A stretch of 58,511 nucleotides of DNA, taken from Chloroflexota bacterium. Its GTDB lineage: Bacteria; Chloroflexota; Dehalococcoidia; UBA2979. The stretch is from assembly GCA_009840945.1 (NCBI GenBank), contig VXMU01000129.1:1-58511 (forward strand), read 5' to 3'. Positions 7,120 to 27,200 of this stretch are shown in pieces; position 1 is the first letter of the stretch; the number at the start of each line of letters is the position of its first letter. Under the pieces are notes generated by a model that saw nothing but the letters and a program-made list of their open reading frames with translations, was not told where the DNA came from and did not search any database. A program made the position numbers and the translations under genes.

Positions 7120-7123
7120 GCCG

Positions 7124-7931: not shown

Positions 7932-7943
7932 GAGCAGCCACGC

Positions 7944-9696: not shown

Positions 9697-9738
9697 GGGG
9701 GAGCAGCCCCGGCGAAGGGACACGCGGCGACCTCCGGT

Positions 9739-10517: not shown

Positions 10518-10550
10518 CCCGCCGCCCCGCGGGCCGCCGAGGCAGGCTCG

Positions 10551-11114
10551 ATGGAAATCGGGGAGACCCTCTACGTCACCGGCCGCGACGAGTGGCGCCG
10601 TTGGCTGGAGGCGCACTTCGAGACCGCGCGCGACATCTGGCTGGTCTACCCGAACAAGGCCTCGGGCGAACCGCGCATCCCCTACAACGACGCGGTCGAG
10701 GAGGCGCTCTGCTTCGGCTGGATCGACAGCATCGTCAAGAAGCTGGACGAGTTGCGGGCCGCGCAGCGGTTCTCACCACGGCGGCGTGGCAGCGGCTACT
10801 CGCAGCTCAACAAGGAGCGGCTGCGCTGGCTCACCGGTGAGGGGCTGCTGCACCCCTCCGTCCGCGCGTCGGCCGAGGAGGCGCTGCGCGAGGAGTTCGT
10901 CTTCCCCGACGACATCCTCGACGCGATCCGCGCGAACGACGCGGCCTGGGCGCACTACGAGCGCTTCTCCCCCGCGTACCGCCGCATCCGCGTGGCCTAC
11001 ATCGACGTCGGCAGGGCGCGCCCGGAGGTGTTCGAGAGCCGCCTGCGGAGCTTCATCAAGGCCACGGAACAGGGGCGGCAGCTGGGCTACGGCGGCACCG
11101 AGAAGTACTTCTGA
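10551..11114 (+). CDS. YdeI/OmpD-associated family protein
   Basis: RDEWRRWLE, YNDAVEEALCFGWIDS, QRFSPRR, SQLNKER. Confidence 0.92.
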   Translation: MEIGETLYVTGRDEWRRWLEAHFETARDIWLVYPNKASGEPRIPYNDAVEEALCFGWIDSIVKKLDELRAAQRFSPRRRGSGYSQLNKERLRWLTGEGLLHPSVRASAEEALREEFVFPDDILDAIRANDAAWAHYERFSPAYRRIRVAYIDVGRARPEVFESRLRSFIKATEQGRQLGYGGTEKYF

Positions 11115-11163
11115 GGCGCGGGCTGCCGGCCCGCCGCGGGCCGGGCGCACCCGCGGACCGGAT

Positions 11164-11244
11164 CCCCTCACCCTAGCCCTCTCCCCAGGGAGAGGGGATC
11201 AGAATCCGGCCCCCTCTCCCCCTGGGAGAGGGTGGGGGTGAGGG
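11164..11244. repeat. Inverted pair of REP-like palindromes at the left flank of the island
   Basis: Copies at 11164-11197 and 11210-11244. Confidence 0.82.
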
Positions 11245-11290
11245 TCCGGCTGGCGCTCGAACGGCTGCTCGCCCCGGCAGATCGGACCCC

Positions 11291-11350
11291 GATGTGCGCC
11301 ACAAATCCGATCACCGAACCGGTGAGACCCGGAGTCAGAATTGGATCTCT
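11291..11350 (+). repeat. Left terminal inverted repeat
   Basis: GATGTGCGCCACAAATCCGATCAC-N16-GGAGTCAGAATTGGATCTCT. Confidence 0.8.
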
Positions 11351-11600
11351 GACGTCGGCAAGCTGCGGTCTGGACCGGATCCTGTTGCCTCGTAGCGCCG
11401 AGAGGGTGCTCGGAGTCGCCAGGAGCGATACTCATAGCCGCTGCGTCCGCCCCCTGAGCATGCAGCGTCGTTAAACGGGCATGTTCGTGATGGGCCACGT
11501 CACCTCGGTTGTAGCTGCGAGTTTCTGGGTGCGTCGGCGCCAAGGGAGGGTTCGGCGGGCATCCGCTCTGGTTACGGAGCGACGAGGGTGCTCGCGTCGG

Positions 11601-11975
11601 CTAAGGGATAGCCTCGATAACGACCCTGCCTGCTTCTTTCGCAACGTCCACGTGAACAGCGTGCTCGGCGAGCATCGACATGCCGACCGCCGGCGTGCCT
11701 GATGTGATCTGAGCGACCACTTCTCGCGCCCGACCGTCCCACATCACTGTTGCTGTGCAGGTCTCGCGCGTCACCTCTGCACCATCCTGAAGGGTTGCCT
11801 GAGCCGGGGCGCCGGAGATCAGGTCGAGTTTCGCCACGAGATCCGGCGGCAACGTGAGGAATCCGCCGAAGCCGGTCACGATCACCGCATCCACGTAGGC
11901 AGTACGCCCCGTCGGGCCGAGGAGCTGCAGCCTGATAATGGCCTGCAGGGCCGCGTTGACGGTGCCCTCAATCAT
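11601..11975 (-). CDS. Clan AA aspartic protease-like protein (catalytic Asp apparently replaced)
   Basis: MIEGTVNAALQAII..., DAVIVTGFGGFLTLP (family motif DTGF), WDGRAREV, PAVGMSML. Confidence 0.75.
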   Translation of the reverse strand: MIEGTVNAALQAIIRLQLLGPTGRTAYVDAVIVTGFGGFLTLPPDLVAKLDLISGAPAQATLQDGAEVTRETCTATVMWDGRAREVVAQITSGTPAVGMSMLAEHAVHVDVAKEAGRVVIEAIP

Positions 11976-12165
11976 GGAAGCGGCCGATCATCTGCGCTTG
12001 GGATTCCCCCTGGGGCTTGAGCCTCAGATCGACGAACGATGGTGTTCCTCAACCGAGCGCGGCACAACTCGGAAGCGAGAACCACCGCAGCCGAAGCTGA
12101 CGGTGGTTCTCTGACGGAGTTCCTCCGCCGACTCACAGAGGCCCTCACCTTACACCTCCTCAGGA

Positions 12166-13113
12166 GTGGGCGGCCAGAGCCCGATCGGCCTCAGCGTAAG
12201 CGACGCTGGCTCGCGGCCCCGAGTAGTATCGAACGCGAGCACGCATGGAGGGGAAGACACTCGATCTACGATCGTCGAGTTGTTCGTGGAGGAAGGACCG
12301 GCTGCGGATACAGCAGCGCTCTGCGTAGCTACTGGTACGTACGGCGGTCGCGAGCCGGAAGCCACAGGGGGTCTAGCTTCGCTCGCGCACGAATATCTCA
12401 GCCGTCGAGCGGTGAGTATCCGGGCTCACGAGGAAACACGGCGTGCATCCACCGTTACTCCCGCCCAGACGGGTGTAGGAACCAAGCTGTCCAATCAGGT
12501 CAAGGAGGCACTCGATCAGGGTGACCCTATGGCAGCGGTCACAGCGCTGAACGACGCTGTTGCGAACCTTGCTACGCGCCTCGCGAACGTTGCTGCGGCC
12601 GACGCCAGTGCTCACAACCAACTAGTCCTGAGCCTTGCTGGGCTCTCGGAGGAGAACAACATTCTCTGGTGGGTCATCAGTAACTACTCGCGAGAGTTGG
12701 GTCGGCCGCGCGGCCAGGCGTCACCCAAAGAACTGGTCCTGCCTTCGGCATACGAGCTGGCGGGCCTTGTCACGCATGCCGTGCCGCCGAGGGTTTCGAT
12801 CGAGTACCTACGCCACGTGTCGTCGTCTACAGAAGGCGAAACGCCTTCGCAACTCACCGTCGCGGAAGCCCTGGAGGCAACCACCTCTGGCTGGCGAGAC
12901 TCGGCGACGGCAATCTCACCGGAAGAGGACCCGGACTACCTCTTCCCGGTACTCGTCGGCTTGCGACTCATGAGGGAGACGCCTGCAGGTGAGTGGGAGC
13001 AGGCACTTCTGGACCGGACCGGGCTCTCGACGGAGTTCGCTGACGCCCCGGAGAACGTGGGATTACAGTTCCTGCACGAACTCTTGCTCACCCGCTGCCT
13101 CGACGGGGCGTGA
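12166..13113 (+). CDS. GASH-like all-helical protein of a GTPase-associated conflict system; probably 5'-truncated
   Basis: LSEENNILWWVISNYS motif, C-terminal QFLHELLL, first position in a GTPase-GTPase-GAP1 operon; start uncertain. Confidence 0.62.
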   Translation: MGGQSPIGLSVSDAGSRPRVVSNASTHGGEDTRSTIVELFVEEGPAADTAALCVATGTYGGREPEATGGLASLAHEYLSRRAVSIRAHEETRRASTVTPAQTGVGTKLSNQVKEALDQGDPMAAVTALNDAVANLATRLANVAAADASAHNQLVLSLAGLSEENNILWWVISNYSRELGRPRGQASPKELVLPSAYELAGLVTHAVPPRVSIEYLRHVSSSTEGETPSQLTVAEALEATTSGWRDSATAISPEEDPDYLFPVLVGLRLMRETPAGEWEQALLDRTGLSTEFADAPENVGLQFLHELLLTRCLDGA

Positions 13114-13117
13114 CACC

Positions 13118-14014
13118 TTGAATCCGAATCCGAACGACACTGCGGCGGGCTTCGTTGCGTTACCGTCCGCGGGTGCACTGACGGTCGAGGAAGCGAACCA
13201 GACCGCCCGTTCCTCGGTAACGCGAGTGATTATCCCGGTGGGCCTCGCCGGCGTCGGGAAGACAACGTTACTTACGGAGCTATACGGAAAGTTCCTTCAG
13301 GGCCCGTTTGCTGGTCATCAATACGCTTGGTCCCGAACGCTTCACGGGTTCGAGCAGCGCTCGCATCACGCGCGGACAACCTCAGGCCGGGCGACCCCAG
13401 AGACACTTCGGACACCGCTCGCTGACCGCGACGTGTTCTTGCATCTCCGACTCGCGCCCGAAGAGGGCGCGGCGCCTGCACGAGACCTCTTGATCGCCGA
13501 TTGGCCAGGCGAGGAGTTTCGGGCGATGCGGGACGACGTACAGACAGCAAGAGCCCACCCGTTTCTCTACCGCGCTGACCACGTTGCCTTCCTTGTGGAC
13601 GGTGGGCGCTTCGGAACGCAGGCACTGCGACAAGAGGCTCGCCACGATACCGACATGTTGATCCAGAGCATTCTCGACGCTGGCGTCGATGGAGCCGTGA
13701 AGTCTGTCATCTACACGAAGTGGGACGCAGCGCTGAACGGAGACGGCGCCGACCAACTCGAGGACTTCGTCGAGGCGTTCGAGGGAGAGATCCGCCGCAA
13801 GCACGAGGCCCGCGCGGGTGAGCTTCAGTTCATTCGGACGGCGGCTCGTCCGGAGTCTGGCTCCGAGGTGTGCCGCGGGAAGAACCTGGATGAGGTCCTC
13901 CGGACTTGGCTTCGTTCCGCTCGCCGACCGCTCGAGGTGCCCGCATCCACCGGGGTCCAAACGACACGAGAGTTCGATCGCTTTCGATCTAGCTCGCCGC
14001 AGAGGGCCGACTGA
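13118..14014 (+). CDS. TRAFAC-clade GTPase (double-GTPase system, first GTPase)
   Basis: G1 GLAGVGKTT, G2-like TLRT, G3 DWPGE, G4 TKWD; SRTLHGFEQRSHHAR. Confidence 0.85.
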   Translation: MNPNPNDTAAGFVALPSAGALTVEEANQTARSSVTRVIIPVGLAGVGKTTLLTELYGKFLQGPFAGHQYAWSRTLHGFEQRSHHARTTSGRATPETLRTPLADRDVFLHLRLAPEEGAAPARDLLIADWPGEEFRAMRDDVQTARAHPFLYRADHVAFLVDGGRFGTQALRQEARHDTDMLIQSILDAGVDGAVKSVIYTKWDAALNGDGADQLEDFVEAFEGEIRRKHEARAGELQFIRTAARPESGSEVCRGKNLDEVLRTWLRSARRPLEVPASTGVQTTREFDRFRSSSPQRAD

Positions 14015-14874
14015 TGCACCAGGCGTTGCTCGTAGGTCTGCCGTCATCCGGCAAGACGACGTTCCTCGCAGCCTTGTGGCACGTCATCTTTGTCCGGGAT
14101 GTCGATGGTGCCCTTGAGCTAGAAGTTCTGCATGCGCCCTTCGACCACTTGAATGATCTGACCGGTCGCTGGCTACGGTTCGAGGTGGCCAACCGAACAA
14201 GCATCGACGCTGAGCAGACTGCCACGATCAGAATCAAGCCTGGTGACGGGGAATCCACCACCGAGATCGTCGTACCCGACCTCGCCGGCGAATCAATCAA
14301 GCGGAGCCTTGCGGATCGCCAATGGCCAACTGGTTTTCGGGACTACGTGCACGACTCCACGGGCGTGTTGCTCTTCGTTCACCCGAAGGAGACAAGCGAG
14401 CCATGGCCGATTCTCGACGCGATGGAGATCGCGGGCGAGGAAGCACTGCCATCTCAGGAATCTGGCGCGGCGGACGCGTCAACCGAGAGTGAATGGAGCG
14501 CCGAGCAAGTACCGACGGACGTGCAGCTCGTCGACCTACTCCAGCTTCTTTGCACGGAGATTGCGACGGGACACTTCAGGCTCGCCGTGATCGTATCTGC
14601 TTGGGATCTGGTGGAGGAGCAAGGCACCCCGTCAGAGTGGTTAGCCAAGGAGCTCCCACTGGTTGATCAATTCCTGAGAAGCCACGACCACTCGCGCTTT
14701 GATGTTCGCGTTTACGGAGTCTCCGCGCAGGGTGGTGAGCTCCCTCAGGAAAGCGATCGCCTCAAGTCCCTCCTCAGCGCTTCTGAGCGGATACGCGTCG
14801 TGCGCGACGCGAACGCAGAATCGCATGACATTACCGAGCCCCTCCGGTGGGTCGTCGATGTCGATACGGGGTGA
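14014..14874 (+). CDS. TRAFAC-clade GTPase (double-GTPase system, second GTPase)
   Basis: G1 GLPSSGKTTFLAALW, G3 DLAGE, G4-like SAWD, YGVSAQGG; TGATG coupling to the previous gene. Confidence 0.87.
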   Translation: MHQALLVGLPSSGKTTFLAALWHVIFVRDVDGALELEVLHAPFDHLNDLTGRWLRFEVANRTSIDAEQTATIRIKPGDGESTTEIVVPDLAGESIKRSLADRQWPTGFRDYVHDSTGVLLFVHPKETSEPWPILDAMEIAGEEALPSQESGAADASTESEWSAEQVPTDVQLVDLLQLLCTEIATGHFRLAVIVSAWDLVEEQGTPSEWLAKELPLVDQFLRSHDHSRFDVRVYGVSAQGGELPQESDRLKSLLSASERIRVVRDANAESHDITEPLRWVVDVDTG

Positions 14875-14896
14875 TACCAGTCGCGGTGGCGAGGCG

Positions 14897-17044
14897 ATGC
14901 GAGTCGCTCAAGCCCTCCATGGGTACCGCAACGGGCACGACCTATTGGCGAGTTCCCGTCGGCTATCCAGGGAGGGGGAGCGAGCCCTCCTCGAGTTGTC
15001 TGATCTCTCCGGGTCGGCCGCTAGAACTCGCGGGTTCGAGAGCTACATATCGGGATACGCGGTGCCGGGCGAACGCCTCTACGCGTTTGCGCGGACGTGG
15101 TTGGCGGATGGAGACGCAAGGCCGGGTTCGGTGTGGACCCACACGCTGCTTCTGACACCTGAGCAGATGGCGCTGCCGAATGTAGCTAGTCTCGCCCAAT
15201 GGTTCCGTAGGCCGCAGTCCGTCGATCACGCGGTTGAGTACGCAAGCCCACTTGAGATCGATGAGCACAACATTGCTGAGCCTCCAAATGCGCCCAGATC
15301 GCCGCACCGCTCGACCGAAACCAGCATCCGTCTAGCCGATATCGTCGCGTCTCTGTACCAGAGCGATAGTGCGAATCACGCGATTCTTCTGCCGGCGGCA
15401 TCCGCCGCTGACTACGAAGAAGTCCTGCTTCATATCTGGTCCATTCAGTGGCCCGAGCTCCGCGAGCACTTCTCGTTCTGCACTGGAGCCCTATCCTTCC
15501 GTCAAGTCGCTGGCCGCCCCTTCGATCTACAGGTCATCCCTCAAGATCGCGCAACGACGATCGGGCGGGGCGCGGCTCAGGAAGTGCTCCTCTTGGGTGC
15601 CGAGCTCGGCGCTGACTCACTCTCGGCCACATGGGCCATGGGTCTTCGACCAGATGACGCTGCCTTGCGCGAGCTGAGAGCCTTCGTGTGGCAATTCGGG
15701 CCGCGGCTTGGGCCGGACCGATTGTCGTTCGGGCGTCTAGTACAACTTCACTCGATCGCTCGGGGAATGTCGGATCGCACGGATTGGCAGGCACTTCTGG
15801 AGAGCATCGGTGCCTGGTACCCGCAACTGTCGAGTGCTCAGGCATTGAAGTCATGGGCACTCGACGAATCCGGACCGAGGCCTACCGAACCGCTCACGAG
15901 TCTGGATCGGCTGTCAGTCCTGTCGCGCTCGGCCGCCGGCTCTGCCTTCCCAGGATGGTGGCACTCGTTGAGCAACTCGTTCCTGCAAGCATTATCAGCT
16001 GATGAGCCGGGGTTCGGGGTATTCCTGCGGGAGTTTCCCGCCTTCGCGACCGCGGATGCGCGCGCAGCCCTCGTGCGGCTCGCGGCCGACGATCTCGAGG
16101 CCGAGGCGTTCGTTCAGCTCATTGGGTGGTGGCCGGATGCGGTCACGTCGAGCGCATTCGACCTCAGGCCTTCCATTGTCATGGACCCGGTACTCTGGGA
16201 ATCGAAAGGCGCTAGGCCCCGTGCACTTACGTGGCTCGCCGGAGCTGACCTAGACGACTCTTTGGTCGCCGAGATAGTACGCGCTGTAATCGCCGCGGGG
16301 CCGTCCGTTGCCTTGACTGACCTTGCTGACGGATTGGGTAGCCGTGCGATCGAAGCTGCCTTCGACGTGCTCGGCGAGAGTTCGGATCAGGAGGAGGTTC
16401 TGCCAGCTAGGCCCGAATGGGCGGCGACTCTACGCTCACATGCGAAGGAAGGTGTTTCGTGGCTCGGCAGGACCGAGAGGCCGTCTACAGCCCTCGCAAA
16501 GCTCGTCCTCGACCAATTCCAGCCGGGGGACCGTCGGCTCCGCGTTCTCGAGAACAAGCGTTGGAGCGAGATCGCAAGGGTTGATCCCTCCACCACTGCA
16601 GGAACCTCGGTTCGTGCGTTCGCACTCGGTGTTGGGCTCCGCGATGACCGCGCGTCCGCGAGTTCCCTCGTGGCCCAAGTCTTTCAGACCGTCTACGACT
16701 CCGCTGAGGCCGGTCGCCTCAGTGATGATGACTGGAACAAGCTGACACGTGCCTTCCCGAAGCCGCCACGGTCACTGCGGAGGCTCATCCGTCGCGGTGG
16801 GGTCGGAAGGGGGCAGATCCTGAGAAGAGCACTCGTCGAGGCATTCGGACAGCGGGATTGGCCCGTCGCCGATTTTCTCGAAGCCGTCAGCGACACCTCC
16901 ATGCTGGCTCGCATGGTTACTGAGAATGTCCGAACCAAGTCGGGTAGGAAGCTAGGTCGGCGACTCAACGCCGCCATTCAGGGGGGCGATCTGCTCCTCA
17001 GCGATCCACAACGCAGCGCGCTGGGGACCTGGATAGACGACTAG
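14897..17044 (+). CDS. GAP1-N1 domain protein (GTPase-associated protein 1)
   Basis: QALHGYRNGHDLLASS, LSDLSG, YISGY, ARTWLA, RPGSVWTHTLL, QWPELREHFSFCT. Confidence 0.78.
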   Translation: MRVAQALHGYRNGHDLLASSRRLSREGERALLELSDLSGSAARTRGFESYISGYAVPGERLYAFARTWLADGDARPGSVWTHTLLLTPEQMALPNVASLAQWFRRPQSVDHAVEYASPLEIDEHNIAEPPNAPRSPHRSTETSIRLADIVASLYQSDSANHAILLPAASAADYEEVLLHIWSIQWPELREHFSFCTGALSFRQVAGRPFDLQVIPQDRATTIGRGAAQEVLLLGAELGADSLSATWAMGLRPDDAALRELRAFVWQFGPRLGPDRLSFGRLVQLHSIARGMSDRTDWQALLESIGAWYPQLSSAQALKSWALDESGPRPTEPLTSLDRLSVLSRSAAGSAFPGWWHSLSNSFLQALSADEPGFGVFLREFPAFATADARAALVRLAADDLEAEAFVQLIGWWPDAVTSSAFDLRPSIVMDPVLWESKGARPRALTWLAGADLDDSLVAEIVRAVIAAGPSVALTDLADGLGSRAIEAAFDVLGESSDQEEVLPARPEWAATLRSHAKEGVSWLGRTERPSTALAKLVLDQFQPGDRRLRVLENKRWSEIARVDPSTTAGTSVRAFALGVGLRDDRASASSLVAQVFQTVYDSAEAGRLSDDDWNKLTRAFPKPPRSLRRLIRRGGVGRGQILRRALVEAFGQRDWPVADFLEAVSDTSMLARMVTENVRTKSGRKLGRRLNAAIQGGDLLLSDPQRSALGTWIDD

Positions 17045-17208
17045 GCGCCAGCGGGCAGCTGCGGACTTTGCACGCGACGTTCGAGCTCCTACTGCTCGGC
17101 CATCAGCCCCCCAGCGGAGTCGCCGGACTTGGTGACTGCGCCATCTCACAAAGCTGCCCTAGCGGCGGCCACGATCGGTTGCGCGTGTGGAGCCGTTACA
17201 ATCTCCCT

Positions 17209-17739
17209 ATGGACTCACCCCTGCACATCGAGCGCGTCTTACTCGTGGCAGGCGGCCGGGGCAGCGGGAAGAGTACCCAGCTAAGAGCGATGTTCCTTGA
17301 CCCGCGACTGGGCTACGACGGTCAGATTCCAACGATCCGGAGGCCTCGCGAGAGATACAGGTTGTCGCCTGACAGGCAGCTCTACGTTCGGTTCAGCTCT
17401 CCGCACGAGAGCAATGCGACACTGGAAGAGTTCCTCAACAAGATAGAGACGAAGTCCGTCTCCGGACGCTGGTGCTTTGCAGGTGCCGTTCAGATCGAGT
17501 CCACAAACAGGGTGCCGGACCTTCGCGACGTGGTCGACGCCATCGTCCAGAGATTCTCGCCCGAGCGCATTCGGATCGCCCTTCTCTCGCCGGATCGCCG
17601 GGGTCGGCAGCTGGCCGACGCGAATGACCACTTGGAGAACCTGCGCGAAGCGGCGCCAGTCGTCGAGGTCATGTCCATCGATGCCCGAACCCGCGAAGGG
17701 AATGGCTTGCTCCTCGCGGACACCTTCGACTTCGCCTGA
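17209..17739 (+). CDS. Small P-loop NTPase-like hypothetical protein
   Basis: LLVAGGRGSGKSTQLR Walker A; TACAAT lies 6 nt before the ATG. Confidence 0.7.
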   Translation: MDSPLHIERVLLVAGGRGSGKSTQLRAMFLDPRLGYDGQIPTIRRPRERYRLSPDRQLYVRFSSPHESNATLEEFLNKIETKSVSGRWCFAGAVQIESTNRVPDLRDVVDAIVQRFSPERIRIALLSPDRRGRQLADANDHLENLREAAPVVEVMSIDARTREGNGLLLADTFDFA

Positions 17740-18109: not shown

Positions 18110-18202
18110 GGTTCTACGGAGTTCTGTGGAACGGGCAGCCCGGATAGTCGGACCGCGGTGGATCCGCGCAGGGACGCACGCCGAGCTCGAGAGTACCGCC
18201 AG

Positions 18203-19054
18203 ATGAATGAGCAGCCGACCGATCTAGTCGAGCACTGGCACGAGGCTGAGGCTGCGCGAGGGACGTCGCCCAAAGGCGTCCCGAATACCGGCCTGCACGT
18301 CCTGGAGATCTTCCGAGAGCAATGGCCGCTTGACGAGAGACATTACCTGACGGAGGGCGGCGGGCAGGTCAAAGGGCTGAGTGGTCATTCGGGCGACATC
18401 ATCATTCGCCGGTACGCGCCCAACTTCAGGTCGATCGGAACCGAGGCAGGGAGGACGAGCAGGTCCACCCCTGGGGCCGCGCAGCGCCTCGCCGCAAGGT
18501 TGAACGAACTTCCGGCGACGATCGGTAACGATCGCGGACAGCGAGCCGATCGTGCGGATCGCATGCAGCGCTGGATCGTGAATGAAGTGCTGGCCCGCGT
18601 ACTCGCTCCCAGAGGACCGGCCATCGAGATCCTCGACGGTGAGCCGCTCGAGCGTGCGTTGAACCGGCATCTGGATGACGCCGCGGGCGATATCACCTGG
18701 GTTCGAGCCGCCGAGAGGCTGCTCGCCGCAACCATAGACGTAGTGACCAGGGATGCCGACGTTCCGCACGGCGACCAACTGCGTCTTGGTGATACGGCGT
18801 TGGTACTGTCGGAATTGCCGACTATGGCCGATGTCGAGACGTGCGCTGCGGCCGTCGCGGACCAGATGCGGTGCCTGCTCCTCACGCCCAACGCGCGGGT
18901 ACTGGCCTCAGCTCAGTTGCTGGAGGCAAACGAACTCGATGCCGTTGAGGTTGAGAGCGCGTCGCGCTTCGTTGCCCGGCTGATCGACATCCCAGGCCGC
19001 TTTGAGCCCGTCCGCCGCGATGAAATGATTCACACACTCAACGAGCGACTCTAA
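18203..19054 (+). CDS. DUF4928-like protein (putative restriction component)
   Basis: YLTEGGGQVKGLSG and TEAGRTSRST motifs; lies near a C5 methyltransferase and vsr. Confidence 0.65.
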   Translation: MNEQPTDLVEHWHEAEAARGTSPKGVPNTGLHVLEIFREQWPLDERHYLTEGGGQVKGLSGHSGDIIIRRYAPNFRSIGTEAGRTSRSTPGAAQRLAARLNELPATIGNDRGQRADRADRMQRWIVNEVLARVLAPRGPAIEILDGEPLERALNRHLDDAAGDITWVRAAERLLAATIDVVTRDADVPHGDQLRLGDTALVLSELPTMADVETCAAAVADQMRCLLLTPNARVLASAQLLEANELDAVEVESASRFVARLIDIPGRFEPVRRDEMIHTLNERL

Positions 19055-19977
19055 CCATCAGCGAGTGCATCGGCGGGATCAAGCGGCAGCCCAGGCCGCA
19101 GTTCAGAGGCGTCGATGCGGATCTTCGTTACTTGCCATTCCGCCGACAGAACGACATCGACGGGCATCCTAGGAATCAATGGAGTCAGCGTAGTCCAGCC
19201 AACAACCTCGGGTGCTGAGTCTCCCGTCGATCGACACAACACCAGGTACCACCGCGGCCGCCTCGATCCAACCTCGAACTCGTTTCGAGTTAGATAGACG
19301 GTCGGGTCACGCCCTCGATAGCACTTCACCTCGAGCCGGCACAACTCCCCCGCCAAATTGGGAGACGAGATGTCCCACCCCATGGCGTCCGAGATCAAAC
19401 TGACCCGTCGCGCTTTGCGCGCAAGATCGGGGCGGCCTCGTGCTTCGAGAAAGTCCCGGCAAGCTGACAGGACGACGTCCTCGCCGGCCTCCCCGAGCTC
19501 ACGGAGCGCCTCAGCGTCGTACTTTGACGCAGCGGCCAGTAAGATCGCGTCGCGTTCATCGTCATCGAACATCTCTTCGAAGAGGGCCGACGCGTCCTCC
19601 GGTAGGAACTCCTCTCGCACCTCACCGCGTGCGGTCGAGGCGCTCAGCCAAGCGGGCAAGGAGTCAAGGATCATCGCGCGTACCAGTTCGCGGGCGACCT
19701 CGGTTTCGTCGTCGTCAGGGAGTGCGAGGCTCCGCGCTGTGGCGCCGAGGGTGGTACCTTCGCGCGTCAGCCACCCTTGTTCCGCAAGCCACTGCTGGGC
19801 GACCAGCAGGCCCTTCGACGAGAGGAACCCTCCAGACGGCGTTGCTCGGTACGAGGCAAGGAGCTCCGAGTCGGCATGACGACCACGGCCCACGATGCGC
19901 AGCACGCGCGCCGCCGACCGCAAGAGGTACGACCCTGGAAGGCTCTCGGGCCGCGCGCCGCCACCGTCATCCGGCAA
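19051..19977 (-). CDS. DUF3883 (NO VEIN C-terminal) PD-(D/E)XK nuclease domain protein
   Basis: ELGEAGEDVV...RVSLISDAMGWDI...LEVKC...VYLTRNEFEVG. Confidence 0.82.
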   Translation of the reverse strand: MPDDGGGARPESLPGSYLLRSAARVLRIVGRGRHADSELLASYRATPSGGFLSSKGLLVAQQWLAEQGWLTREGTTLGATARSLALPDDDETEVARELVRAMILDSLPAWLSASTARGEVREEFLPEDASALFEEMFDDDERDAILLAAASKYDAEALRELGEAGEDVVLSACRDFLEARGRPDLARKARRVSLISDAMGWDISSPNLAGELCRLEVKCYRGRDPTVYLTRNEFEVGSRRPRWYLVLCRSTGDSAPEVVGWTTLTPLIPRMPVDVVLSAEWQVTKIRIDASELRPGLPLDPADALADG

Positions 19978-21805
19978 GATGCCTGGCTACCTCCGCGAGG
20001 TCGCCCTGATCGACACCGAAGTCGGCCTCGCCCTCAAGGCCCTCCTCGGGCGTCGCGGGAAGCGACATCACTGTGAGCCCAGGGTCGTGCAGCAGCTCGC
20101 CCAAGCGCTCGGTCTTCTCGCGGAGGCGCGACTCGACGACTTCATCGATGGTCTCGGGACTGCCGAGGATCGTCACTCTAGTCTCCGTCTCGGGATCCAG
20201 GCCGAGCCGGTGGATCCTGTCGACGCTCTGCAGGTAGTGTCCGGCGTTGAAGGTCCGCTCCAGGTAGATGGCGTCGTGGCACGCGTGGTGCAGGCTCACT
20301 CCCTCCCCGAGCGCCGCGGGGTTCGCCAGCAGCACGTGGCAATCCGGATCAGAACGGAACCGCCTCAACTGATCCGCGCGATCGTGAACTCCGCCATGAA
20401 CCAGCGCAGGCGAGTAGTCCGTCAGCTCGTGGCGATACAGCGTTTCGAGGTTTCTGACGAAGTTCGACCACACGAGGGTCTTCCTCCCGGCACGGACGTT
20501 CTCCTCGATCGCCGCCTTCAGGAACTCGAACTTCCACGGCGTCTCGTAGTTCGGATACGCTCGCAGGAGGCCGTCGAGGTCGGTGTCAGGCGGCACATCC
20601 AACGGCGGGTGCCGAAAGAGCACGGGATCGTGGGGGTGACTTCCCGCGATCAACAGGCTGGGGTTCGTCGCTGCCTCCAACAGGTACATCGTGATGCGCC
20701 CGAACGCCCGCAAATCGATGCGCGCGCGGCGGGATGCGTCGAACAGCCCCCCGTACCGCCCCACGATCGCTCCGTATATCTCTGCGTGGAGCGGATGGAG
20801 ATCCCGGTGCTCCGTGCGGATAAGAGGTTCTGGAAGGTCTAGTTCAACCTTGGTCGTCCGAACGAACAGAGGTGCGATTCGACGTGACACCTCCCGAATG
20901 CCATCCTCGTCTCGGGCATCGCGTGGTATCAGTTGACGCGCGCTTCCCGGCCACACGAAGTCGAAGAGCGCATCAAGGTCGAATACTGACTGCGGGGCGG
21001 GCGTCCCGGTCAGGATGTCGCGACGCACGGCCAGATTGGCCAGGTTCAAGCAGTTCCGGCCCCACTCTCCAGCCCACCCGCGCTTCATGCGATGGGCCTC
21101 GTCGAGGATCATGTGCGTCTTCCTGGCCGCCACCCACTCCGCGAGTTCATCGAATCCGGACTCGAGCCGCTGGTAGTTGACCAGGAGAACCTCGGCGGGA
21201 GGAACGACGCCTCCCGTAAACCGCACCACAGCCGGGACCGGATCGAAGGAGGACTCCGCCTCGTCCTCCCAGGACTCGAACGCCGCGAGTGGCGCCACCA
21301 CGAGGAGTCGCTCAACGCGAGCTGCCCGACGTTCAGCCTCGTACGCTCCGTAGGCGACGCTCGTCTTCCCGGCTCCTGGAACCGAGAAGTTGGCACCGTT
21401 AGCGAGCGCGAGCAGCTTGCCGAGGTCGCGGATCTGGAACGGCCGCAAGGCACGCACGAAGCGACTACCTTCAAGTGCCTCAGCGACGGCGGCCCCGTCC
21501 AGGGGTGGCGGAGACTCCAGCGCCACACTGAAGCGCTCCGAGTCCGCGAGACGGCGCCGCACCAAGTCGAGTGCATCGCCCTTCCACTCGACACCCACTT
21601 CGTACTCGCGGAAGTACTCTGCCACCCAATTCAGGTGGGCCAGGAACTCGCTGATCGGAACGTTGACGCGCGTCCGCGGTGAGCGTCCCTTCGTGCCCCA
21701 CTCCGTCTGAACCCTGAGCCACACAAGCTCCGGTACGCCCGGGCCGCGCGAGACGACGACATCGGTCGTCCCTGCTCTGTGGTCTATCGAAACAACGCTA
21801 CGCAT
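19967..21805 (-). CDS. SNF2-like SF2 helicase/ATPase
   Basis: LRPFQ, ANFSVPGAGKT, LDEAHRMK, LTGTPAPQS, LANPAALGEGVSLH, QSVDRIHRLG. Confidence 0.93.
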   Translation of the reverse strand: MRSVVSIDHRAGTTDVVVSRGPGVPELVWLRVQTEWGTKGRSPRTRVNVPISEFLAHLNWVAEYFREYEVGVEWKGDALDLVRRRLADSERFSVALESPPPLDGAAVAEALEGSRFVRALRPFQIRDLGKLLALANGANFSVPGAGKTSVAYGAYEAERRAARVERLLVVAPLAAFESWEDEAESSFDPVPAVVRFTGGVVPPAEVLLVNYQRLESGFDELAEWVAARKTHMILDEAHRMKRGWAGEWGRNCLNLANLAVRRDILTGTPAPQSVFDLDALFDFVWPGSARQLIPRDARDEDGIREVSRRIAPLFVRTTKVELDLPEPLIRTEHRDLHPLHAEIYGAIVGRYGGLFDASRRARIDLRAFGRITMYLLEAATNPSLLIAGSHPHDPVLFRHPPLDVPPDTDLDGLLRAYPNYETPWKFEFLKAAIEENVRAGRKTLVWSNFVRNLETLYRHELTDYSPALVHGGVHDRADQLRRFRSDPDCHVLLANPAALGEGVSLHHACHDAIYLERTFNAGHYLQSVDRIHRLGLDPETETRVTILGSPETIDEVVESRLREKTERLGELLHDPGLTVMSLPATPEEGLEGEADFGVDQGDLAEVARHLAG

Positions 21806-22748
21806 CGACCTTGTTCGCTTCGGCCAGCAGATTCACTTCCTTCCGGAGATCTCCGACCGCGTGGTCGAGAGCCCCGTGGTCGAAACCCGGACCCTGCTGT
21901 GCGGTCGGAAGGGCGTCGCGCGCGCGGGCCACCTTCTGCTGCGCTTGCTTGACGAGCCGCAGCGGCGTGGACTGCCGCTGCTGGTCCTTCCTGTGCTCCT
22001 CGCTGTCCTGCGACGCCTGCGTGATCCGTTCCTTGATCTCCTCGTACAGTTGCGCCTTCGTCAGACCGCCACCGGCCGGCGCGTCCGGATCCGCACCGTA
22101 GAGTTCGGCGACTCTCACAAGGAGGCGCTTGGGATCGATGGTGGTCGCGTCCGTACCACCCAACCCATCGAGGATCGCGAGCCCGTCGTCGATGTCGCCG
22201 TCGCTGGAACCACTGCCATTCGTAGCGCCGCCGCCGACCAGCGGCAGGAGGTGGTCGTCATCATCGAACAGCGGCTCGACGTACTCGGTGAGAAACTCGT
22301 TTGTGTCCCAGCGTCGCAGGTTTCGGTAAGTGACGCCCACCAATACTCCAGCGATACGCCCGTCGCGGACGCGCCGTGCCTGTTCCGGGTCGTTCCGCCG
22401 GATCTTCACCAACACACCTGCATGCGTGACGATTCCGAACTCAAGCTGCCCACTCTCGCGGAGATTGTCGGCGAGTACTCCAAAGCCGGGCGTCTCAGTG
22501 AGGATCTCCCCGATAATCGTCTGTGCGTGCTCCGAGTAGGGAGCATCCCTCAGCACGGCCGCATCGGCGTGAGACTCGATGTGGGCTCGAATCCGATGGC
22601 TCGAGGGATTCAGCAGGACGCTGTCCAAGGACAGTGTGATGGCGGGCAGCGGCTCTGAAGCATTCTGCCAGACTACCGAGTAGGTCTCAGTCGCAGCTTT
22701 CGACTTCGCCGCGATTTCGGCGATCCGCGCTTCCTCGGTCGGCGGCAT
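21798..22748 (-). CDS. ParB/Srx-like N-terminal domain protein, apparently internally deleted
   Basis: LLNPSSHRIRA...LADNLRESGQLEFGIVTHAGVLV follows the ParB-N pattern but the expected (N/D)GxxR motif is absent; overlaps the helicase start. Confidence 0.6.
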   Translation of the reverse strand: MPPTEEARIAEIAAKSKAATETYSVVWQNASEPLPAITLSLDSVLLNPSSHRIRAHIESHADAAVLRDAPYSEHAQTIIGEILTETPGFGVLADNLRESGQLEFGIVTHAGVLVKIRRNDPEQARRVRDGRIAGVLVGVTYRNLRRWDTNEFLTEYVEPLFDDDDHLLPLVGGGATNGSGSSDGDIDDGLAILDGLGGTDATTIDPKRLLVRVAELYGADPDAPAGGGLTKAQLYEEIKERITQASQDSEEHRKDQQRQSTPLRLVKQAQQKVARARDALPTAQQGPGFDHGALDHAVGDLRKEVNLLAEANKVDA

Positions 22749-22784
22749 TGTGCGCTCCTCCGCGGCTCTGTTCTGGGGGTCATC

Positions 22785-23228
22785 TCATGATAGACGGCCC
22801 CTCGCCGTTGGCGAGCTGCCCGATCGCCGACTCTCGAGCGCTTCGAGGAGTCTCTCGGTACCTGTCGCGAGATCGCACTCCCAGATCTCGACCACCCACC
22901 AGCCGTCCTTCGTCAGCGCCTCCGCCGCCGCACGATCGCGGTCTCGGGTTCGCTGGATCTTGGCCCGCCAGTACTCGGCGTTGGTGGCAGGCAGGCGGTC
23001 GCCGCGACGGCAGTCATGGCCGTGCCAGAAGCACCCGTGCACCTGCACCACTGCGCGGTACCTCGAAAGGACGATATCGGGGTGTCCGGGCAGGTCCCTG
23101 CGATGGAGCCGATAACGATAGCCGGCGGCGTGCAGTGCACGCCTGACTAGCAACTCCGGCCCGGTGTCACGTGAACGCACGCGGGCCATGATCCGACTAC
23201 GCGCGGCCGGGTCGACGGTGTCAGCCAC
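22785..23228 (-). CDS. vsr: Very short patch repair endonuclease
   Basis: RSRIMARVRSRDTGPELLVRRALH, LPGHPDIV, VHGCFWHGH, VEIWEC. Confidence 0.96.
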   Translation of the reverse strand: MADTVDPAARSRIMARVRSRDTGPELLVRRALHAAGYRYRLHRRDLPGHPDIVLSRYRAVVQVHGCFWHGHDCRRGDRLPATNAEYWRAKIQRTRDRDRAAAEALTKDGWWVVEIWECDLATGTERLLEALESRRSGSSPTARGRLS

Positions 23229-23348
23229 TCTCCCTCACCTCGAACCGGGAGGCCGCCGTCTCAAAACGATGCTCGCACATCAGCACTCCGGCTTCGCCAT
23301 CACCGGCGCCAGGGTAGCGTTCGGCCGTGTGGCTCATGCCGCGATCGA

Positions 23349-24467
23349 TTAGGCAGGCGACTCGACCATCGGATTCAGGCACTCGCGAATGATCCACTCC
23401 ACGGCTGGGACGCAGACCGCGTCGCCAAACCCCGAGAGGGCCTGATTATCGGAAACGGACTCCGGCACTTGGAAGTCCGCGGCACCCTGCAAGCGAGCAT
23501 ACTCGAGCGGGGTCATCCACCGTACCCTCACGTCGCCGCGATATGCCTCAACGAGCGCCTGCTTGCTGGACCCACCGCCCGAGGTTCTGAGACAGCCAGC
23601 GATCGCGTCCGCCCTTATCTCCCATACGGCGCGCCTGTTCCGCGTCCGGCGGTAGGCGGTGGCCCACGAGGTCGACCGGCCGCCGGCCATTCGCGTCAGG
23701 CGCTCGCGATGCCGTTCCGCCAAGGAGGCCACGAACTTGCGCACCCTCTCGGCACCCCACCACCGCTCGTCGTTCTCCGCAAGGCGTTCGACGACATCCT
23801 TCAGCGATGCTTGCGCGTTCGGCGGCACCGGACAGGACAATGGATCGAGACCCAAGTCAGCGTTTGCTTCGATGAATCGCATCAGCGGCGGCGGTCGAAG
23901 CAGTGATTCGTCCCACCCCGCTCCGTGACCCGCACCGCCGCCGGCTCGACCAACGATGAAGAGGCGTCTACGGCTCTGCGGTACGTGCCACCTTGCGTCG
24001 GTGATGAGCAGGTCGCAGCCGTACCCGAGGTCGCGAAGGCGGGCGAGTGCGGCACGCAAGTCGGCACCTTGCCCCGACGTGAGGAAACTAGGAACGTTCT
24101 CGATGAGAACGAAGCGTGGGCGGCGAGCACCCATCTCCTCCAGGACTCGAGCGAACTCCCAGAACAAGCCCGAGTGCTCTCCACCTAGCCCGCGACGCTT
24201 GCCGGCCAGGGAGAGATCCACGCACGGGAACGAAGCCGTCGCAAGGTCCACATCGGGGATGTCGGCGCCGCTGACCTGCCGCACGTCCCGGAGATCGAAA
24301 TCGGTACCCCGGAAGTTGGCGCAGTACATATCCCGTTTGAACGCCTTGATGTCATTGGCGTAGCGAACGCTCCAGCCAGCGCGTTCGAGCGCCATCCTGA
24401 CGAGTCCGATGCCAGCGAAGAACTCAGCTGCGGTCCCGACGTTGCCACGCCTCAGGCCATCGTGCAT
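23349..24467 (-). CDS. dcm: DNA (cytosine-5)-methyltransferase
   Basis: Motif I FFAGIG, IV SFPC, VI IENV, VIII PQSRRR, IX-X YARLQG...FGDAV. Confidence 0.95.
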   Translation of the reverse strand: MHDGLRRGNVGTAAEFFAGIGLVRMALERAGWSVRYANDIKAFKRDMYCANFRGTDFDLRDVRQVSGADIPDVDLATASFPCVDLSLAGKRRGLGGEHSGLFWEFARVLEEMGARRPRFVLIENVPSFLTSGQGADLRAALARLRDLGYGCDLLITDARWHVPQSRRRLFIVGRAGGGAGHGAGWDESLLRPPPLMRFIEANADLGLDPLSCPVPPNAQASLKDVVERLAENDERWWGAERVRKFVASLAERHRERLTRMAGGRSTSWATAYRRTRNRRAVWEIRADAIAGCLRTSGGGSSKQALVEAYRGDVRVRWMTPLEYARLQGAADFQVPESVSDNQALSGFGDAVCVPAVEWIIRECLNPMVESPA

Positions 24468-24684
24468 AACGTCCGACCTAACTGATCATTTAGGCGCCCG
24501 CTTTACTGGTTTATCTTATCACGTACGTGCCTGCGGTTGCGACTCATGCGGCGGCCAAGCCCCTCCGACAAACGGCGGAACTCTTGGATCCTCTAGGTCC
24601 GAATGCCCGACCGTCGTGAGACGTCTCCTCTCGCAGACGCGGCATGAGTGGTTGGCGCTGTATACACGGCGTACACTCCACCAC

Positions 24685-25254
24685 ATGGGAGTGACACCTC
24701 AGGAAGTACCCGGTGCAGCGCGCCCTCGAGGCGCGTGGTTGCGCCAACTCAGGGTCTCGATGGAGATGACTCAACGCGACCTCGCCGGCGAGCTCGGCGT
24801 TTCCACCAACACTGTCGCTCGATGGGAACGCAACGAGGTCGAGATGCGGCACCCGCAGATGCTGCGCCTCGCGCTCGATGCGGTCCGTCATAAACGGGGG
24901 CAGCGGAAGCTGTCCGCGGATGATCACATCGCGACGCGTTCGCCGACTCACCAGACCGCTGCCCCCGAATCGGGCGCGGGCACCCTCTTCAGGCTCGCCG
25001 AGCGCGGCGCGACGTTCGCAACTCGCGAGAGAGCCGAAGCCCTGGCATCGGGCATTCCGGAGGGGGATGTCACCATCGACTTCAGCGGCGTGAAGGCAGC
25101 AAGCCCTTCGTTCTTGGACGGGTTGATCGGTGTGCTGTCAGAGCGCACCGCCTCGACGGCGCTGACCGGCCTGACGGTCGAGATGGAACAGCTCGCGGGC
25201 CTGATCGTCGCTCGACGTGGCGTCGGTGGCCGATTCAGGCTGCCAGCGGCGTGA
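24685..25254 (+). CDS. XRE HTH fused to a STAS-like (DUF4325-type) domain
   Basis: LRQLRVSMEMTQRDLAGELGVSTNTVARWE plus FATRERA...VTIDFSGVKAASPSFLDGLIG; TACACT lies 7 nt before the ATG; divergent from dcm. Confidence 0.78.
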   Translation: MGVTPQEVPGAARPRGAWLRQLRVSMEMTQRDLAGELGVSTNTVARWERNEVEMRHPQMLRLALDAVRHKRGQRKLSADDHIATRSPTHQTAAPESGAGTLFRLAERGATFATRERAEALASGIPEGDVTIDFSGVKAASPSFLDGLIGVLSERTASTALTGLTVEMEQLAGLIVARRGVGGRFRLPAA

Positions 25255-25804: not shown

Positions 25805-27058
25805 ATGTCCGCGTCTTCCGCATCTCCAGACGACCAGAGGATACTCGACCGCTGCCCGCGCTGTGAGCTGTCAGTCGACAGTTTCTGCGAAGAACACCGC
25901 CCGAAGCGCTCGCCGCAGTTCGCCAACGAGTACATAGAGATCAGACGCGCGCTCTACCACAACCGAGCGAACTCGCGACAGGACAAGAGCGCCATCCTGG
26001 ACGACATTTGCGATGTCACCGGCTACCACCGGGACACCGTGAAACGGAAGCTCACAGCGAAGAAACCGCAGGGAGCCCCGAAGAAGCGAGGGCGGAGGAC
26101 GAAATACACGAAGGAGGACGCCGATGCGCTCCTGTATCTTCGGGAGGCCTCGCGGTTCATCGACGCTCGGGGACTCAAGTCGCGACTTCCCGGCTTGATC
26201 AGGAAGATCGAGAAGGGCGGCCATCGTTACTTCCCCCGAGAGGTCAAGAACCACCTGGCGGAGATCTCTCCCCGAACGATAGACCGACTCGTTACGAAGT
26301 ATGGAGGAGCACGTCCGCACAGCGGTTCCGCTCGGCGCCGGAGAAGTCGACGGGGAACCTACGAGGCCTCGCTGCGAGTGCGCACCTGGGCCGAGTGGCG
26401 CAACGAACCGCCCGGCTCAGTGCTCGCCGACCACGTACACCATACGGGCAACGTGGGCGGCGGCCCGCATTGCTACACCATAGACATCCTCGACGTCGCC
26501 ACGAGTTGGACCTGGCTGCATGCCAGCGAGCGTCTTCAGAAAGACGTTGTCGTGGACATGCTGAGCCGCGCCTATAAGGTGTGGCCCGTGCGGATCCACG
26601 CTCTGCACACGGATCGCGGCACCGAGTTTCTCAACGACGAGGTCGGTGAGTGGGTGGAGCAGCACGGCATCGACCACACCATGGGGCGGATTGCGCGCTC
26701 GAACGACCAGGCCCGCGTCGAGCAGCGAAACTACACTGCCGTACGCTTGGAACTAGCGGACCACCGGTTTGCCGGCGCGACGGCTTGCAAGGCGTTGAAC
26801 GACTTCTACGCCAAGTACTGTCTGTACCTGAACTACTTCAGGCCCGTGAGAAAGCTCTCGTGGCGGGGACCGAACGGCGAGAGGGCACCGACACGCTTCC
26901 AACCGCCAGCCACGCCGTATGAGCTCATGCTCGCCTCCGGCGCGCTCGACCCAGACGCAAAACAGCGCCTGAAGCAGATCTACGAAGATCTCGACCCGGT
27001 CGTGCTCAATGACGAGATCGACAAGGCGCAGAGGAAGGCCATGAGGTACGTAGCGTAG
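25805..27058 (+). CDS. DDE integrase-core (rve) transposase, ISNCY-like
   Basis: GGAGG RBS; KSAILDDICDVTGYHRD HTH, ISPRTIDRL, D(HVHH), HTDRGTEF, NDQARVEQRN, TPYE. Confidence 0.9.
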   Translation: MSASSASPDDQRILDRCPRCELSVDSFCEEHRPKRSPQFANEYIEIRRALYHNRANSRQDKSAILDDICDVTGYHRDTVKRKLTAKKPQGAPKKRGRRTKYTKEDADALLYLREASRFIDARGLKSRLPGLIRKIEKGGHRYFPREVKNHLAEISPRTIDRLVTKYGGARPHSGSARRRRSRRGTYEASLRVRTWAEWRNEPPGSVLADHVHHTGNVGGGPHCYTIDILDVATSWTWLHASERLQKDVVVDMLSRAYKVWPVRIHALHTDRGTEFLNDEVGEWVEQHGIDHTMGRIARSNDQARVEQRNYTAVRLELADHRFAGATACKALNDFYAKYCLYLNYFRPVRKLSWRGPNGERAPTRFQPPATPYELMLASGALDPDAKQRLKQIYEDLDPVVLNDEIDKAQRKAMRYVA

Positions 27059-27067: not shown

Positions 27068-27128
27068 AGTGATCCATATGTGACTCCAAGACCAGATCCA
27101 CCAGTGATCGAGTTTTGTGGCTCACATC
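27068..27128 (-). repeat. Right terminal inverted repeat
   Basis: Reverse complement reads GATGTGAGCCACAAAACTCGATCAC-N16-GGAGTCACATATGGATCACT. Confidence 0.8.
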
Positions 27129-27131
27129 AGA

Positions 27132-27200
27132 CCCCCTCACCCTAACCCTCTCCCCCGCAGACGGGGGCGAGGGGATCGGACGGAGAGGGCGAGGGGTGAG
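27132..27200. repeat. REP-like palindrome at the right flank of the island
   Basis: CCCCTCACCCTAACCCTCTCCCCC...GGGGGCGAGGGG plus a partial reverse copy. Confidence 0.78.

Follow-up and report, generated by a model that had tools for sequence, protein, structure and literature searches.

A ParB-like, SNF2 and NOV_C gene cassette found beside DNA methyltransferases, with a probably inactive copy in a Dehalococcoidia bacterium

We analysed a 58,511-nt stretch of DNA (the window) from a Chloroflexota bacterium of the Dehalococcoidia lineage UBA2979 (GCA_009840945.1, contig VXMU01000129.1, positions 1 to 58,511), in which a reading made from the sequence only had taken seven neighbouring genes, at 18,203 to 25,254, for a candidate undescribed restriction-like defence system. 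These genes encode a Dcm-type cytosine methyltransferase, a Vsr endonuclease, a ParB-like protein, an SNF2-family ATPase, a NOV_C (DUF3883) nuclease protein, a DUF4928-like protein and a regulator with a helix-turn-helix (HTH) and a STAS-like domain. We favour, with some reserve, the reading that a widespread and unnamed defence cassette of the restriction-modification (R-M) type, resembling AbiR, is present here in decayed form. Its constant core would be a ParB/Srx-fold DNA-binding protein and an SNF2 translocase, which here form a trio with a separate NOV_C nuclease predicted to dock on SNF2, and the core always comes with a DNA methyltransferase. In the lineage of the window, the trio sits inside a DUF4928/Dcm/Vsr 5-methylcytosine (5mC) module.

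Recurrence of the trio beside DNA methyltransferases

The conservation of the trio was assessed in 89 related loci, nine of them from species genomes and 80 metagenomic, the best of 273 such relatives. To classify their genes, tblastn was run with the window proteins and locus representatives as queries, and the representatives were searched with Pfam, PADLOC and PHROG. With the window included, the 90 loci form 78 groups at 95% nucleotide identity and are thus not all independent, and the metagenomic contigs are short. An SNF2 gene follows the ParB-like gene in all 67 loci with at least 1 kb of downstream sequence, and a NOV_C gene follows the SNF2 gene in 52 of 54, the exceptions (L003 and L036) having a methylase directly next. 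Where at least 2.5 kb of sequence is available to either side, which is the case for 27 loci, the cassette has a DNA methyltransferase gene no further than 1.5 kb away in every one (a raw count, with no random-locus baseline). Overall, methyltransferases were recognised in 55 of the 89 loci, and the other 34 all end no more than 875 bp past the last trio gene. The trio thus recurs across these loci as a unit that is always beside a DNA methyltransferase, which supports the sequence-only reading on this point, and because it does so in 89 related loci the arrangement is far beyond chance.

The accompanying methyltransferases belong to several classes. MT3, a protein of about 650 aa with partial matches to PglX, HmaB and mad2, was found in 31 loci and in one more that also has an N6_N4 methylase; nine loci have a gamma-type N6 methylase (N6_Mtase/Eco57I), five have MT4 (about 720-760 aa; HmaB at 1e-23), five have N6_N4 (PF01555) and four, plus the window, have Dcm, with Vsr. 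On a quick maximum-likelihood tree of the SNF2 proteins (IQ-TREE, 57 rows), the methylase label changes at least 14 times, the minimum possible being 6. All loci of the Dcm type group in a single clade, in which L012 and L013 are sister to the window, L001 and L002; it is nested among MT3 loci and has a Shimodaira-Hasegawa-like approximate likelihood ratio (SH-aLRT) support of 100. The co-occurrence of the trio with dcm and DUF4928, which the earlier reading had proposed as a check, does recur, but Dcm is confined to those four loci and the window, and DUF4928 to two loci and the window.

The trio family is patchy in the window's phylum, where 4 of 400 other genomes have it at E<=1e-10 (a count that includes G344, flagged as unpublished). 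The hosts of the loci include Actinomycetota, Chloroflexota, Pseudomonadota and Acidobacteria, and members also lie on plasmids from Alphaproteobacteria, Streptomyces and Firmicutes. Searched with a profile, 1.84 billion representative proteins gave 318 clusters at a threshold of 1e-30, rising to 964 at 1e-10 and to 1660 at 1e-3, and 91 plasmid records matched the SNF2 protein, 52 of them from Enterococcus.

Components of the cassette and the damaged ParB-like gene

Pfam, PADLOC and NCBIfam agree with the gene labels of the sequence-only reading, except for the 'ParB-like' open reading frame (ORF) of 316 aa, which matches nothing in Pfam, PADLOC, NCBIfam or PHROGs and owes its label to intact homologues. 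These are 440-480 aa long. Six homologues searched against Pfam at E<=1 gave nothing relevant, ParB_N included, and five intact ones had no match in PADLOC; phrog_620, a 'ParB-like partition protein', matches the family at 3.8e-5. An AlphaFold2 model of an intact homologue had a predicted local distance difference test score (pLDDT) of 82.7 and a predicted template modelling score (pTM) of 0.75. Its Foldseek matches were KorB (8qa9, E 3.6e-4, TM by target 0.55-0.57), Myxococcus xanthus ParB, pNOB8 ParB-N (5k5d), Noc and Spo0J, with probability 1.00 over 222-280 columns, the E-value being best for KorB and weaker for the others. The N-terminal fold, the conserved arginine motif and the HTH after it, by which ParB/Srx proteins are recognised, are found in the intact homologue, and the window protein lacks this region. 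The family is, as judged from the model, ParB/Srx-like with an HTH, and it is exactly that core which is gone from the window copy.

The window protein is without about 133 residues after position 114, corresponding to homologue residues of about 115-248 (alignments A1 and A6). When the DNA was aligned with L001 and L002, gaps of 202 and 197 nt added up to 399 nt, in frame, with the junction after gene base 344. The deleted stretch comprises the invariant N-x-N-T-R (N115, N117 and R119 of P0009) and the helical domain with HTH that follows. The same deletion is present in a second protein, P0001, which is 99% identical, other short relatives being end fragments, and no further ParB-like copy was found in the genome (2.53 Mb, 136 contigs, 92.5% complete). 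Because this in-frame deletion removes the ParB motif and the HTH, the window's copy of the cassette is probably dead, and its effector arm is most likely inactive.

The 612-aa SNF2 protein has phrog_62 as its best profile match (1.5e-59, positions 682-1127 of 1881), and the invariant SNF2 columns are intact in the window: G144, G146, K147 and T148 of Walker A, D235-H238 of the DEAH box and Q526...G535 of motif VI (alignment A7). The NOV_C invariants D197, D202, E216 and K218 are likewise intact (alignment A5). The NOV_C protein has an uncharacterised N-terminal half and PADLOC matches to PDC-S36 (1e-14), TmtA and PD-T4-1, PDC-S36 and PD-T4-1 being single-gene candidates, while a profile search of PDB sequences with A5 gave chance-level matches only (E 0.6-0.84). 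Complex prediction for the SNF2 and NOV_C proteins gave an interface score (ipSAE) of 0.63 (range over three runs, 0.62-0.64), while none of three controls scored above 0.00, the mark being attained by 116 of 157 solved complexes and by 2 of 215 mismatched pairs. The runs had at least 81% of contacts in common and a partner pLDDT of at least 78, and the predicted interface joins SNF2 383-459 with NOV_C 109-127 and 153. Judged by this prediction, the two proteins probably form one machine, which fits HmaA of the Hma system because both modules are one polypeptide there. We know of no solved structure of a like SNF2-NOV_C complex.

Other defence genes adjoin the cassette in some related loci. 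In L084 the NOV_C end overlaps a gene for a RecD-like protein of 1168 aa (9730-13236), and L039 (2001-6197) encodes a 1398-aa protein with sacsin and NOV_C domains that is reminiscent of the PADLOC models for TmtA (Tiamat), to which other NOV_C proteins of this analysis have matches. Shedu SduA lies upstream in L003 (4496-6061), at the locus where NOV_C is missing.

The Dcm translation contains FAGIGL, FPC and ENV, which we take to be methyltransferase motifs, and conserved residues are kept in both Dcm and Vsr. The DUF4928-like protein matches PF16280 in two stretches and the PADLOC model REase_II PDLC03543 at 8.5e-11. Stand-alone DUF4928 genes were found in 10 other genomes of the 400 in the phylum sample; Dcm adjoins all 10 and is 33-54% identical to the window Dcm in each, Vsr adjoins nine, and there is no space for the trio between the genes of these modules. 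The same triad is listed in SGI1-related islands of Marinobacter (PMC9035990). DUF4928, Dcm and Vsr are a recurrent 5mC R-M module in its own right, and since the module recurs on its own, the window holds a nested composite locus, with the trio inside it, and not the one seven-gene machine that had been proposed. The C5 methyltransferase, Vsr and DUF4928 that make up a type II R-M system with Vsr are all present, with the trio in between. L012 and L013 have the window's gene order, including a convergent DUF4928 gene after NOV_C (40-41% identity), and L001 and L002 have Dcm, Vsr and the trio with no DUF4928. ORFs of about 400-473 aa upstream of Dcm in L001 and L002 were considered as an extra conserved component and rejected, as they match neither each other nor anything else.

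The trio-linked DUF4928 proteins differ from their stand-alone relatives. When a conserved column was taken as one identical in at least 9 of the 10 stand-alone proteins, only 14 of the 53 such columns were shared by all three trio-linked copies. These have other residues in place of the central blocks Q-H-L-x-G-A-K-L, G-D-F and H-V-T, and the family's conserved core is not kept. By these columns the window DUF4928 belongs to a divergent subgroup, and the trio-linked proteins may be inactive.

Endonuclease-like partners also occur in the related loci. In 39 loci (for example L026:2720-3910), the ParB-like gene is directly preceded by a gene for a protein of about 370-430 aa, whose family we call X, and X2, a distant relative of X, adjoins MT4 in four (L016:3051-4097, L031:10500-11546). 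X has no Pfam match, ten X and X2 proteins had none in PADLOC, and a profile search of PDB sequences with X (alignment A4) returned no matches. For an AlphaFold2 model of X (pLDDT 89.4, pTM 0.81), the best Foldseek match was BstEII (E 7.3e-4), and VIA-align ranked BstEII first (Z 10.0, root-mean-square deviation 4.4, 252 aligned), followed by BsaWI (9.9), BsoBI (9.5) and AgeI (9.4), with PspGI, PfoI, Bse634I, SgrAI, NgoMIV and Cfr10I at lower ranks. The X model thus matches the type IIP restriction-endonuclease fold. Look-alikes from a protein language model were clusters of BanI, DpnII, XcyI and XamI (0.94), which we treat as a lead only. X2 retains P-D ... E-A-K, X is without such a pattern at the aligned place, and in L006 a XamI-family endonuclease gene is beside the methylase.

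Described relatives and possible ways of working

The sequence-only reading had found no named system to which the cluster belongs, and this holds for PADLOC (v2 of 2023), which names none: no full system was returned, only generic helicase, MTase_II, Vsr and REase_II models and single-gene candidates. Nor were core genes of DISARM, BREX, Zorya or Druantia seen in the 14 island ORFs scanned, as had been stated, a DruM-type match falling on Dcm only. The SNF2 protein had partial matches, over the C-terminal half of the helicase and at 1e-5 to 1e-11, to ZorD (5e-11), DpdE, DrmD (2.8e-5), HmaA and BrxH (9e-5). A search of the published literature found no description of a ParB-like/SNF2/NOV_C cassette with a methyltransferase, the related papers being those on Hma and Tiamat. 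The cluster does have precedent, however, as AbiR has the same design and Hma the same SNF2 and NOV_C effector, and these two are the closest described systems.

AbiR, from Lactococcus lactis pKR223, is described as a sigma70-like AbiRa, a ParB-like AbiRb and a nuclease-SNF2 protein, AbiRc; it was first mapped to two loci with the LlaKR2I R-M genes between them, depends on the LlaKR2I methylase, in whose absence it is reported to be toxic, and the reviewers superimposed AbiRb on PDB 5K5D (review PMC13064643). The same structure, 5K5D, is also among the top matches of our ParB-like homologue model. The likeness, which we draw from the published description of AbiR and not from its sequence, lies in a ParB-like protein and an SNF2 ATPase with a nuclease beside a type II R-M pair. 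For the ParB-like component it is the model of the intact homologue that matches, the core being deleted in the window; the SNF2 component has Pfam SNF2-rel_dom and Helicase_C, and Dcm, Vsr and the DUF4928-like gene flank the trio. The two differ in that the window's 612-aa SNF2 protein has no nuclease family on it, the nuclease being the separate downstream NOV_C protein, whereas in AbiRc it is fused N-terminally. Moreover, no sigma-like family was found in the 14 island ORFs (Pfam, NCBIfam), and none was noted among the neighbours scanned in L001-L009. The name AbiR was absent among the best 120 of 610 profile matches (from 5.8 billion proteins), and a tblastn search of plasmids with the ParB-like homologue gave five records, none from Lactococcus. 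Given the toxicity reported for AbiR, one could speculate that loss of the ParB core in the window was selected for.

Homologous operons also occur on plasmids. In L107 (Enterococcus faecalis plasmid pQZ076-2, 4309-9984), an operon encodes a sigma-like protein of 864 aa, a ParB-like protein of 405 aa and an SNF2 protein of 620 aa, which is the AbiR-type architecture. Its ParB-like protein matches the family profile (hhalign probability 95.4, E 1.9e-8), and its SNF2 protein is 26% identical to that of the window over 521 residues (E 4e-44). In L104 (Lactococcus lactis plasmid pIBB109_AgSa_3, 1483-9497) and L106 (Enterococcus faecium p1818-a, 552-8497), Mod, Res, ParB and SNF2 genes overlap one another, so that a type III R-M system is extended by a ParB N-terminal-domain protein and an SNF2 helicase, both homologous to the window's own. 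Because these three plasmids pair the ParB-like and SNF2 proteins with differing partners, we regard that pair as the constant core, and the nuclease and methylase as the parts that vary.

Hma (HmaA-HmaB-HmaC), also called the Type-1 BREX-related system, has been described as R-M-like and built on a DUF499 ATPase and a DUF1156 methylase (PMC12839542). Its HmaA is an SNF2 and NOV_C fusion whose NOV_C domain is reported as a nickase essential for defence against T4 (PMC11232893). The window shares with it an SNF2 helicase, a NOV_C PD-(D/E)xK effector and a DNA methyltransferase in an R-M-like logic, and MT3 and MT4 of the sister cassettes match the PADLOC models HmaB, DUF1156_MTase and PglX at 1.7e-12 to 1e-23. 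Unlike Hma, it has no DUF499 HmaC, either in the 14 island ORFs (Pfam, PADLOC) or among the neighbours in related loci, and a ParB-like gene stands in its place. Here SNF2 and NOV_C are encoded separately, by genes that share 11 nt, the PADLOC HmaA model matching residues 468-536 only (8.3e-8), and the window methylase is a C5 Dcm (PF00145) with Vsr and not a DUF1156 N6-adenine HmaB.

Other systems share parts of the design. All three flanking genes are homologous to those of DUF4928/Dcm/Vsr type II R-M modules, from which the window differs by the trio inserted between Vsr and DUF4928. Type III R-M, DISARM and other restriction systems with a helicase and a methylase likewise combine an ATP-dependent superfamily 2 (SF2) motor, a PD-(D/E)xK nuclease and a protective methylase, but here motor and nuclease are separate proteins and the ParB-like protein is obligatory; type III Mod/Res and DISARM DrmA/B/C are not in the window, PADLOC matches to DrmD and DrmA being weak and partial (2.8e-5).

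What the analysis shows directly is the gene content, the gene order across loci, the folds, the conserved residues and the deletion, and the way of working is proposed from these. Together, the obligatory linkage and the report on AbiR suggest that the methylase may shield self DNA from the ParB-like/SNF2/nuclease effector. The earlier proposal of an effector guarded by methylation is to this extent partly supported, by co-occurrence. On this reading Dcm would methylate host sites and so protect the chromosome, and Vsr would repair the T:G mismatches that arise by 5mC deamination, as is established for its family. Unmethylated incoming DNA would then be recognised, the candidate readers being the DUF4928 protein, the methyltransferase and the HTH of the ParB-like protein. 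The ParB-like protein could load on DNA as a nucleotide-gated clamp or platform, as its fold suggests, after which SNF2 would translocate and the bound NOV_C would nick or degrade the DNA, as the predicted complex and HmaA would have it.

Several points weigh against this account. Dependence on methylation is read from the gene neighbourhood, and one effector would have to serve m5C, m6A and possibly m4C methylases of unrelated specificity. The methyltransferase classes were set, beyond the representatives, by tblastn to our own representatives and not by curated models. At the place where ParB has its motif G-E-R-R, the ParB-like family has N-G-N-T-R, and nucleotide binding is thus putative. 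The ParB core is absent from the window copy, whose past activity in this genome is a supposition. Finally, of the 56 loci with a recognised methylase, only 32 have a restriction-endonuclease-like gene that could be recognised as such, at least eight MT3 loci with upstream room having none, so that this gene is an optional part and the idea of it as a universal part or reader had to be abandoned.

A bolder form of the proposal, to which we give tentative and minority credence, is that ordinary R-M pairs, both type II of several families and type III, are made into ATP-driven processive restriction machines when the ParB-like/SNF2 pair is added as a general plug-in. In many cassettes X and the trio-linked DUF4928 protein would then be non-cutting readers of unmethylated sites, with the ParB-like protein as a nucleotide-gated clamp that hands DNA to SNF2-NOV_C. 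If this were true, AbiR would be a small branch of a large family (964 representative clusters at E<=1e-10).

The alternative that survives best, though we consider it improbable, is that two independent neighbours share a defence island, namely a DUF4928/Dcm/Vsr type II R-M system and a ParB-SNF2-NOV_C module that acts irrespective of methylation, for example by sensing phage replication intermediates or DNA ends, a mode put forward for other systems of helicase and nuclease. Such independence would agree with the ten other genomes of the phylum sample that carry DUF4928, in all of which DUF4928 and Dcm (mostly with Vsr) stand without the trio, with the frequent change of methyltransferase type, with the L107 operon, in whose 14.8-kb stretch tblastn found no Dcm-like methylase, and with the report that HmaA protects without HmaB or HmaC (PMC11232893). 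Clustering in islands would by itself, however, hardly give every one of the 27 loci with both flanks an adjacent methyltransferase from one or other of five classes. In the window, L012 and L013 the trio also has the M gene on one side and the R gene on the other, in most MT3 loci its neighbours on the two sides are X and MT3, and AbiR is reported as toxic without its methylase (PMC13064643).

We think it quite unlikely that the cassette is instead a modification or counter-restriction aid for a mobile element, in which a DarB-like methylase-SNF2 dyad would speed marking while the ParB-like protein binds the element's DNA. Among the hubs of phage and plasmid polyvalent proteins, for which an anti-restriction role has been proposed, are ParB domains as well as SNF2 ATPases that are coupled to adenine methylases (PMC5512222). 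The closest profile to the window's SNF2 protein is phrog_62, ParB, methylase and SNF2 recur together in both settings, and relatives are found on plasmids (the 91 records for SNF2). The DarB-like proteins are giant single proteins, in contrast to the separate genes here, which come with a nuclease, endonuclease-like partners and other methylase families. We considered MT3 as the methylase half of a DarB-like phrog_62 protein and rejected this, because MT3 and MT4 match phrog_10183 and not the methylase part of phrog_62. A PD-(D/E)xK nuclease after SNF2 in 52 of 54 loci and the frequent endonuclease-like genes also argue against a counter-restriction aid, and most loci are chromosomal or metagenomic, beside Shedu, GmrSD, AIPR and SIR2.

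That the trio carries out modification-dependent, type IV-like restriction of foreign methylated DNA, with the nearby methylases as unrelated cargo, seems very unlikely: NOV_C is elsewhere fused to the modification readers SRA_ScoMcrA, ScoMcrA_N and MrcB_N (Atlas look-alikes, a lead only) and ParB-like domains occur in GmrSD-type enzymes (PMC5512222), but a type IV enzyme that shares an operon with an active methylase would turn on the host itself, the link to a methylase in all 27 loci with both flanks speaks for the two working together, and Pfam finds no reader domain in the trio.

The locus in its island and implications

All seven genes of the sequence-only reading were found as ORFs at the coordinates that it gave, except that the DUF4928 ORF opens upstream of the start it had assigned, 18203 being an internal ATG. 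The overlaps it had described were also there, 8 nt between the ParB-like and SNF2 genes and 11 nt between SNF2 and NOV_C, as was the convergent 4-nt overlap of NOV_C and DUF4928 at 19051-19054. The divergent HTH-STAS gene, which had been counted as the system's regulator, has no tblastn counterpart in any of the 89 related loci; this HTH_3-DUF4325 gene is best treated as a neighbour and not as a conserved component, and its true start is probably downstream of 24409.

Table 1. Coordinates and supporting matches of the genes at the locus and of the deletion junction.
Feature	Position	Strand	Basis
DUF4928-like	18158-19054	+	ORF call and Pfam DUF4928 (PF16280) 1e-21
NOV_C/DUF3883 PD-(D/E)xK nuclease protein	19051-19977	-	Pfam NOV_C 2.5e-6
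SNF2-family ATPase/translocase	19967-21805	-	Pfam SNF2-rel_dom 2e-10, Helicase_C 1e-8
ParB/Srx-like, internal-deletion allele, 316 aa	21798-22748	-	Homologues about 448 aa
In-frame 399-nt deletion junction in ParB-like gene	22404..22405	-	DNA alignment with L001 and L002
Vsr very-short-patch repair endonuclease	22785-23228	-	Pfam Vsr 2.8e-32; TIGR00632 8.6e-44, above cut-off
Dcm-type C5 cytosine DNA methyltransferase	23349-24467	-	Pfam DNA_methylase (PF00145) 6.8e-46; PADLOC MTase_II 1.9e-114; TIGR00675 1.1e-46
HTH_3 and DUF4325 (STAS-like)	24409-25254	+	Pfam HTH_3 1.6e-7, DUF4325 1.9e-5

The cluster lies on a foreign-looking, low-GC island of about 11.2-27.2 kb, with a GC content of 61-67% compared to 70-76% in the flanks. 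A GC-rich palindromic repeat (CCCTCACCC...CCCTCTCCCC / GGGGAGAGGG) bounds the island at 9733-9990, 11161-11252 and 27117-27175, the copies at 11161-11186 and 27130-27155 being 92% identical, and the repeat-bracketed site may be an insertion hotspot. At the right end of the island is an rve integrase-core gene (25805-27058, + strand) with weak IS481 and IS3 transposase matches below the curated cut-offs. Just upstream of the cluster, a complete GTPase-associated conflict system occupies 12166-17044 (+ strand), followed by a small P-loop ORF at 17068-17739; its domains are GASH (1.4e-16), DO-GTPase2 (4.5e-37), DO-GTPase1 (1.2e-68) and GAP1-N1 (2e-25), and there is no PADLOC model for it. We count this setting, low in GC and with a transposase and a second conflict system, among the points in favour of a defence cassette. 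The sole tRNA gene in the window (ARAGORN) is a tRNA-SeC at 5819-5915 (- strand).

For this genome less follows: on its island Dcm and Vsr are apparently intact, the DUF4928-like gene is divergent and the effector arm is broken. If the favoured reading is true, it would add a system that is unnamed by the PADLOC models searched, and the AbiR phenotype, long without an explanation, dependent on a methylase and otherwise toxic, would gain a broad family and a testable mechanism. A protein of the ParB type, known from chromosome segregation and plasmid gene silencing, would then be one core part of a widespread restriction-like immune system that exchanges one methylase for another with ease and can be nested within classical R-M pairs.

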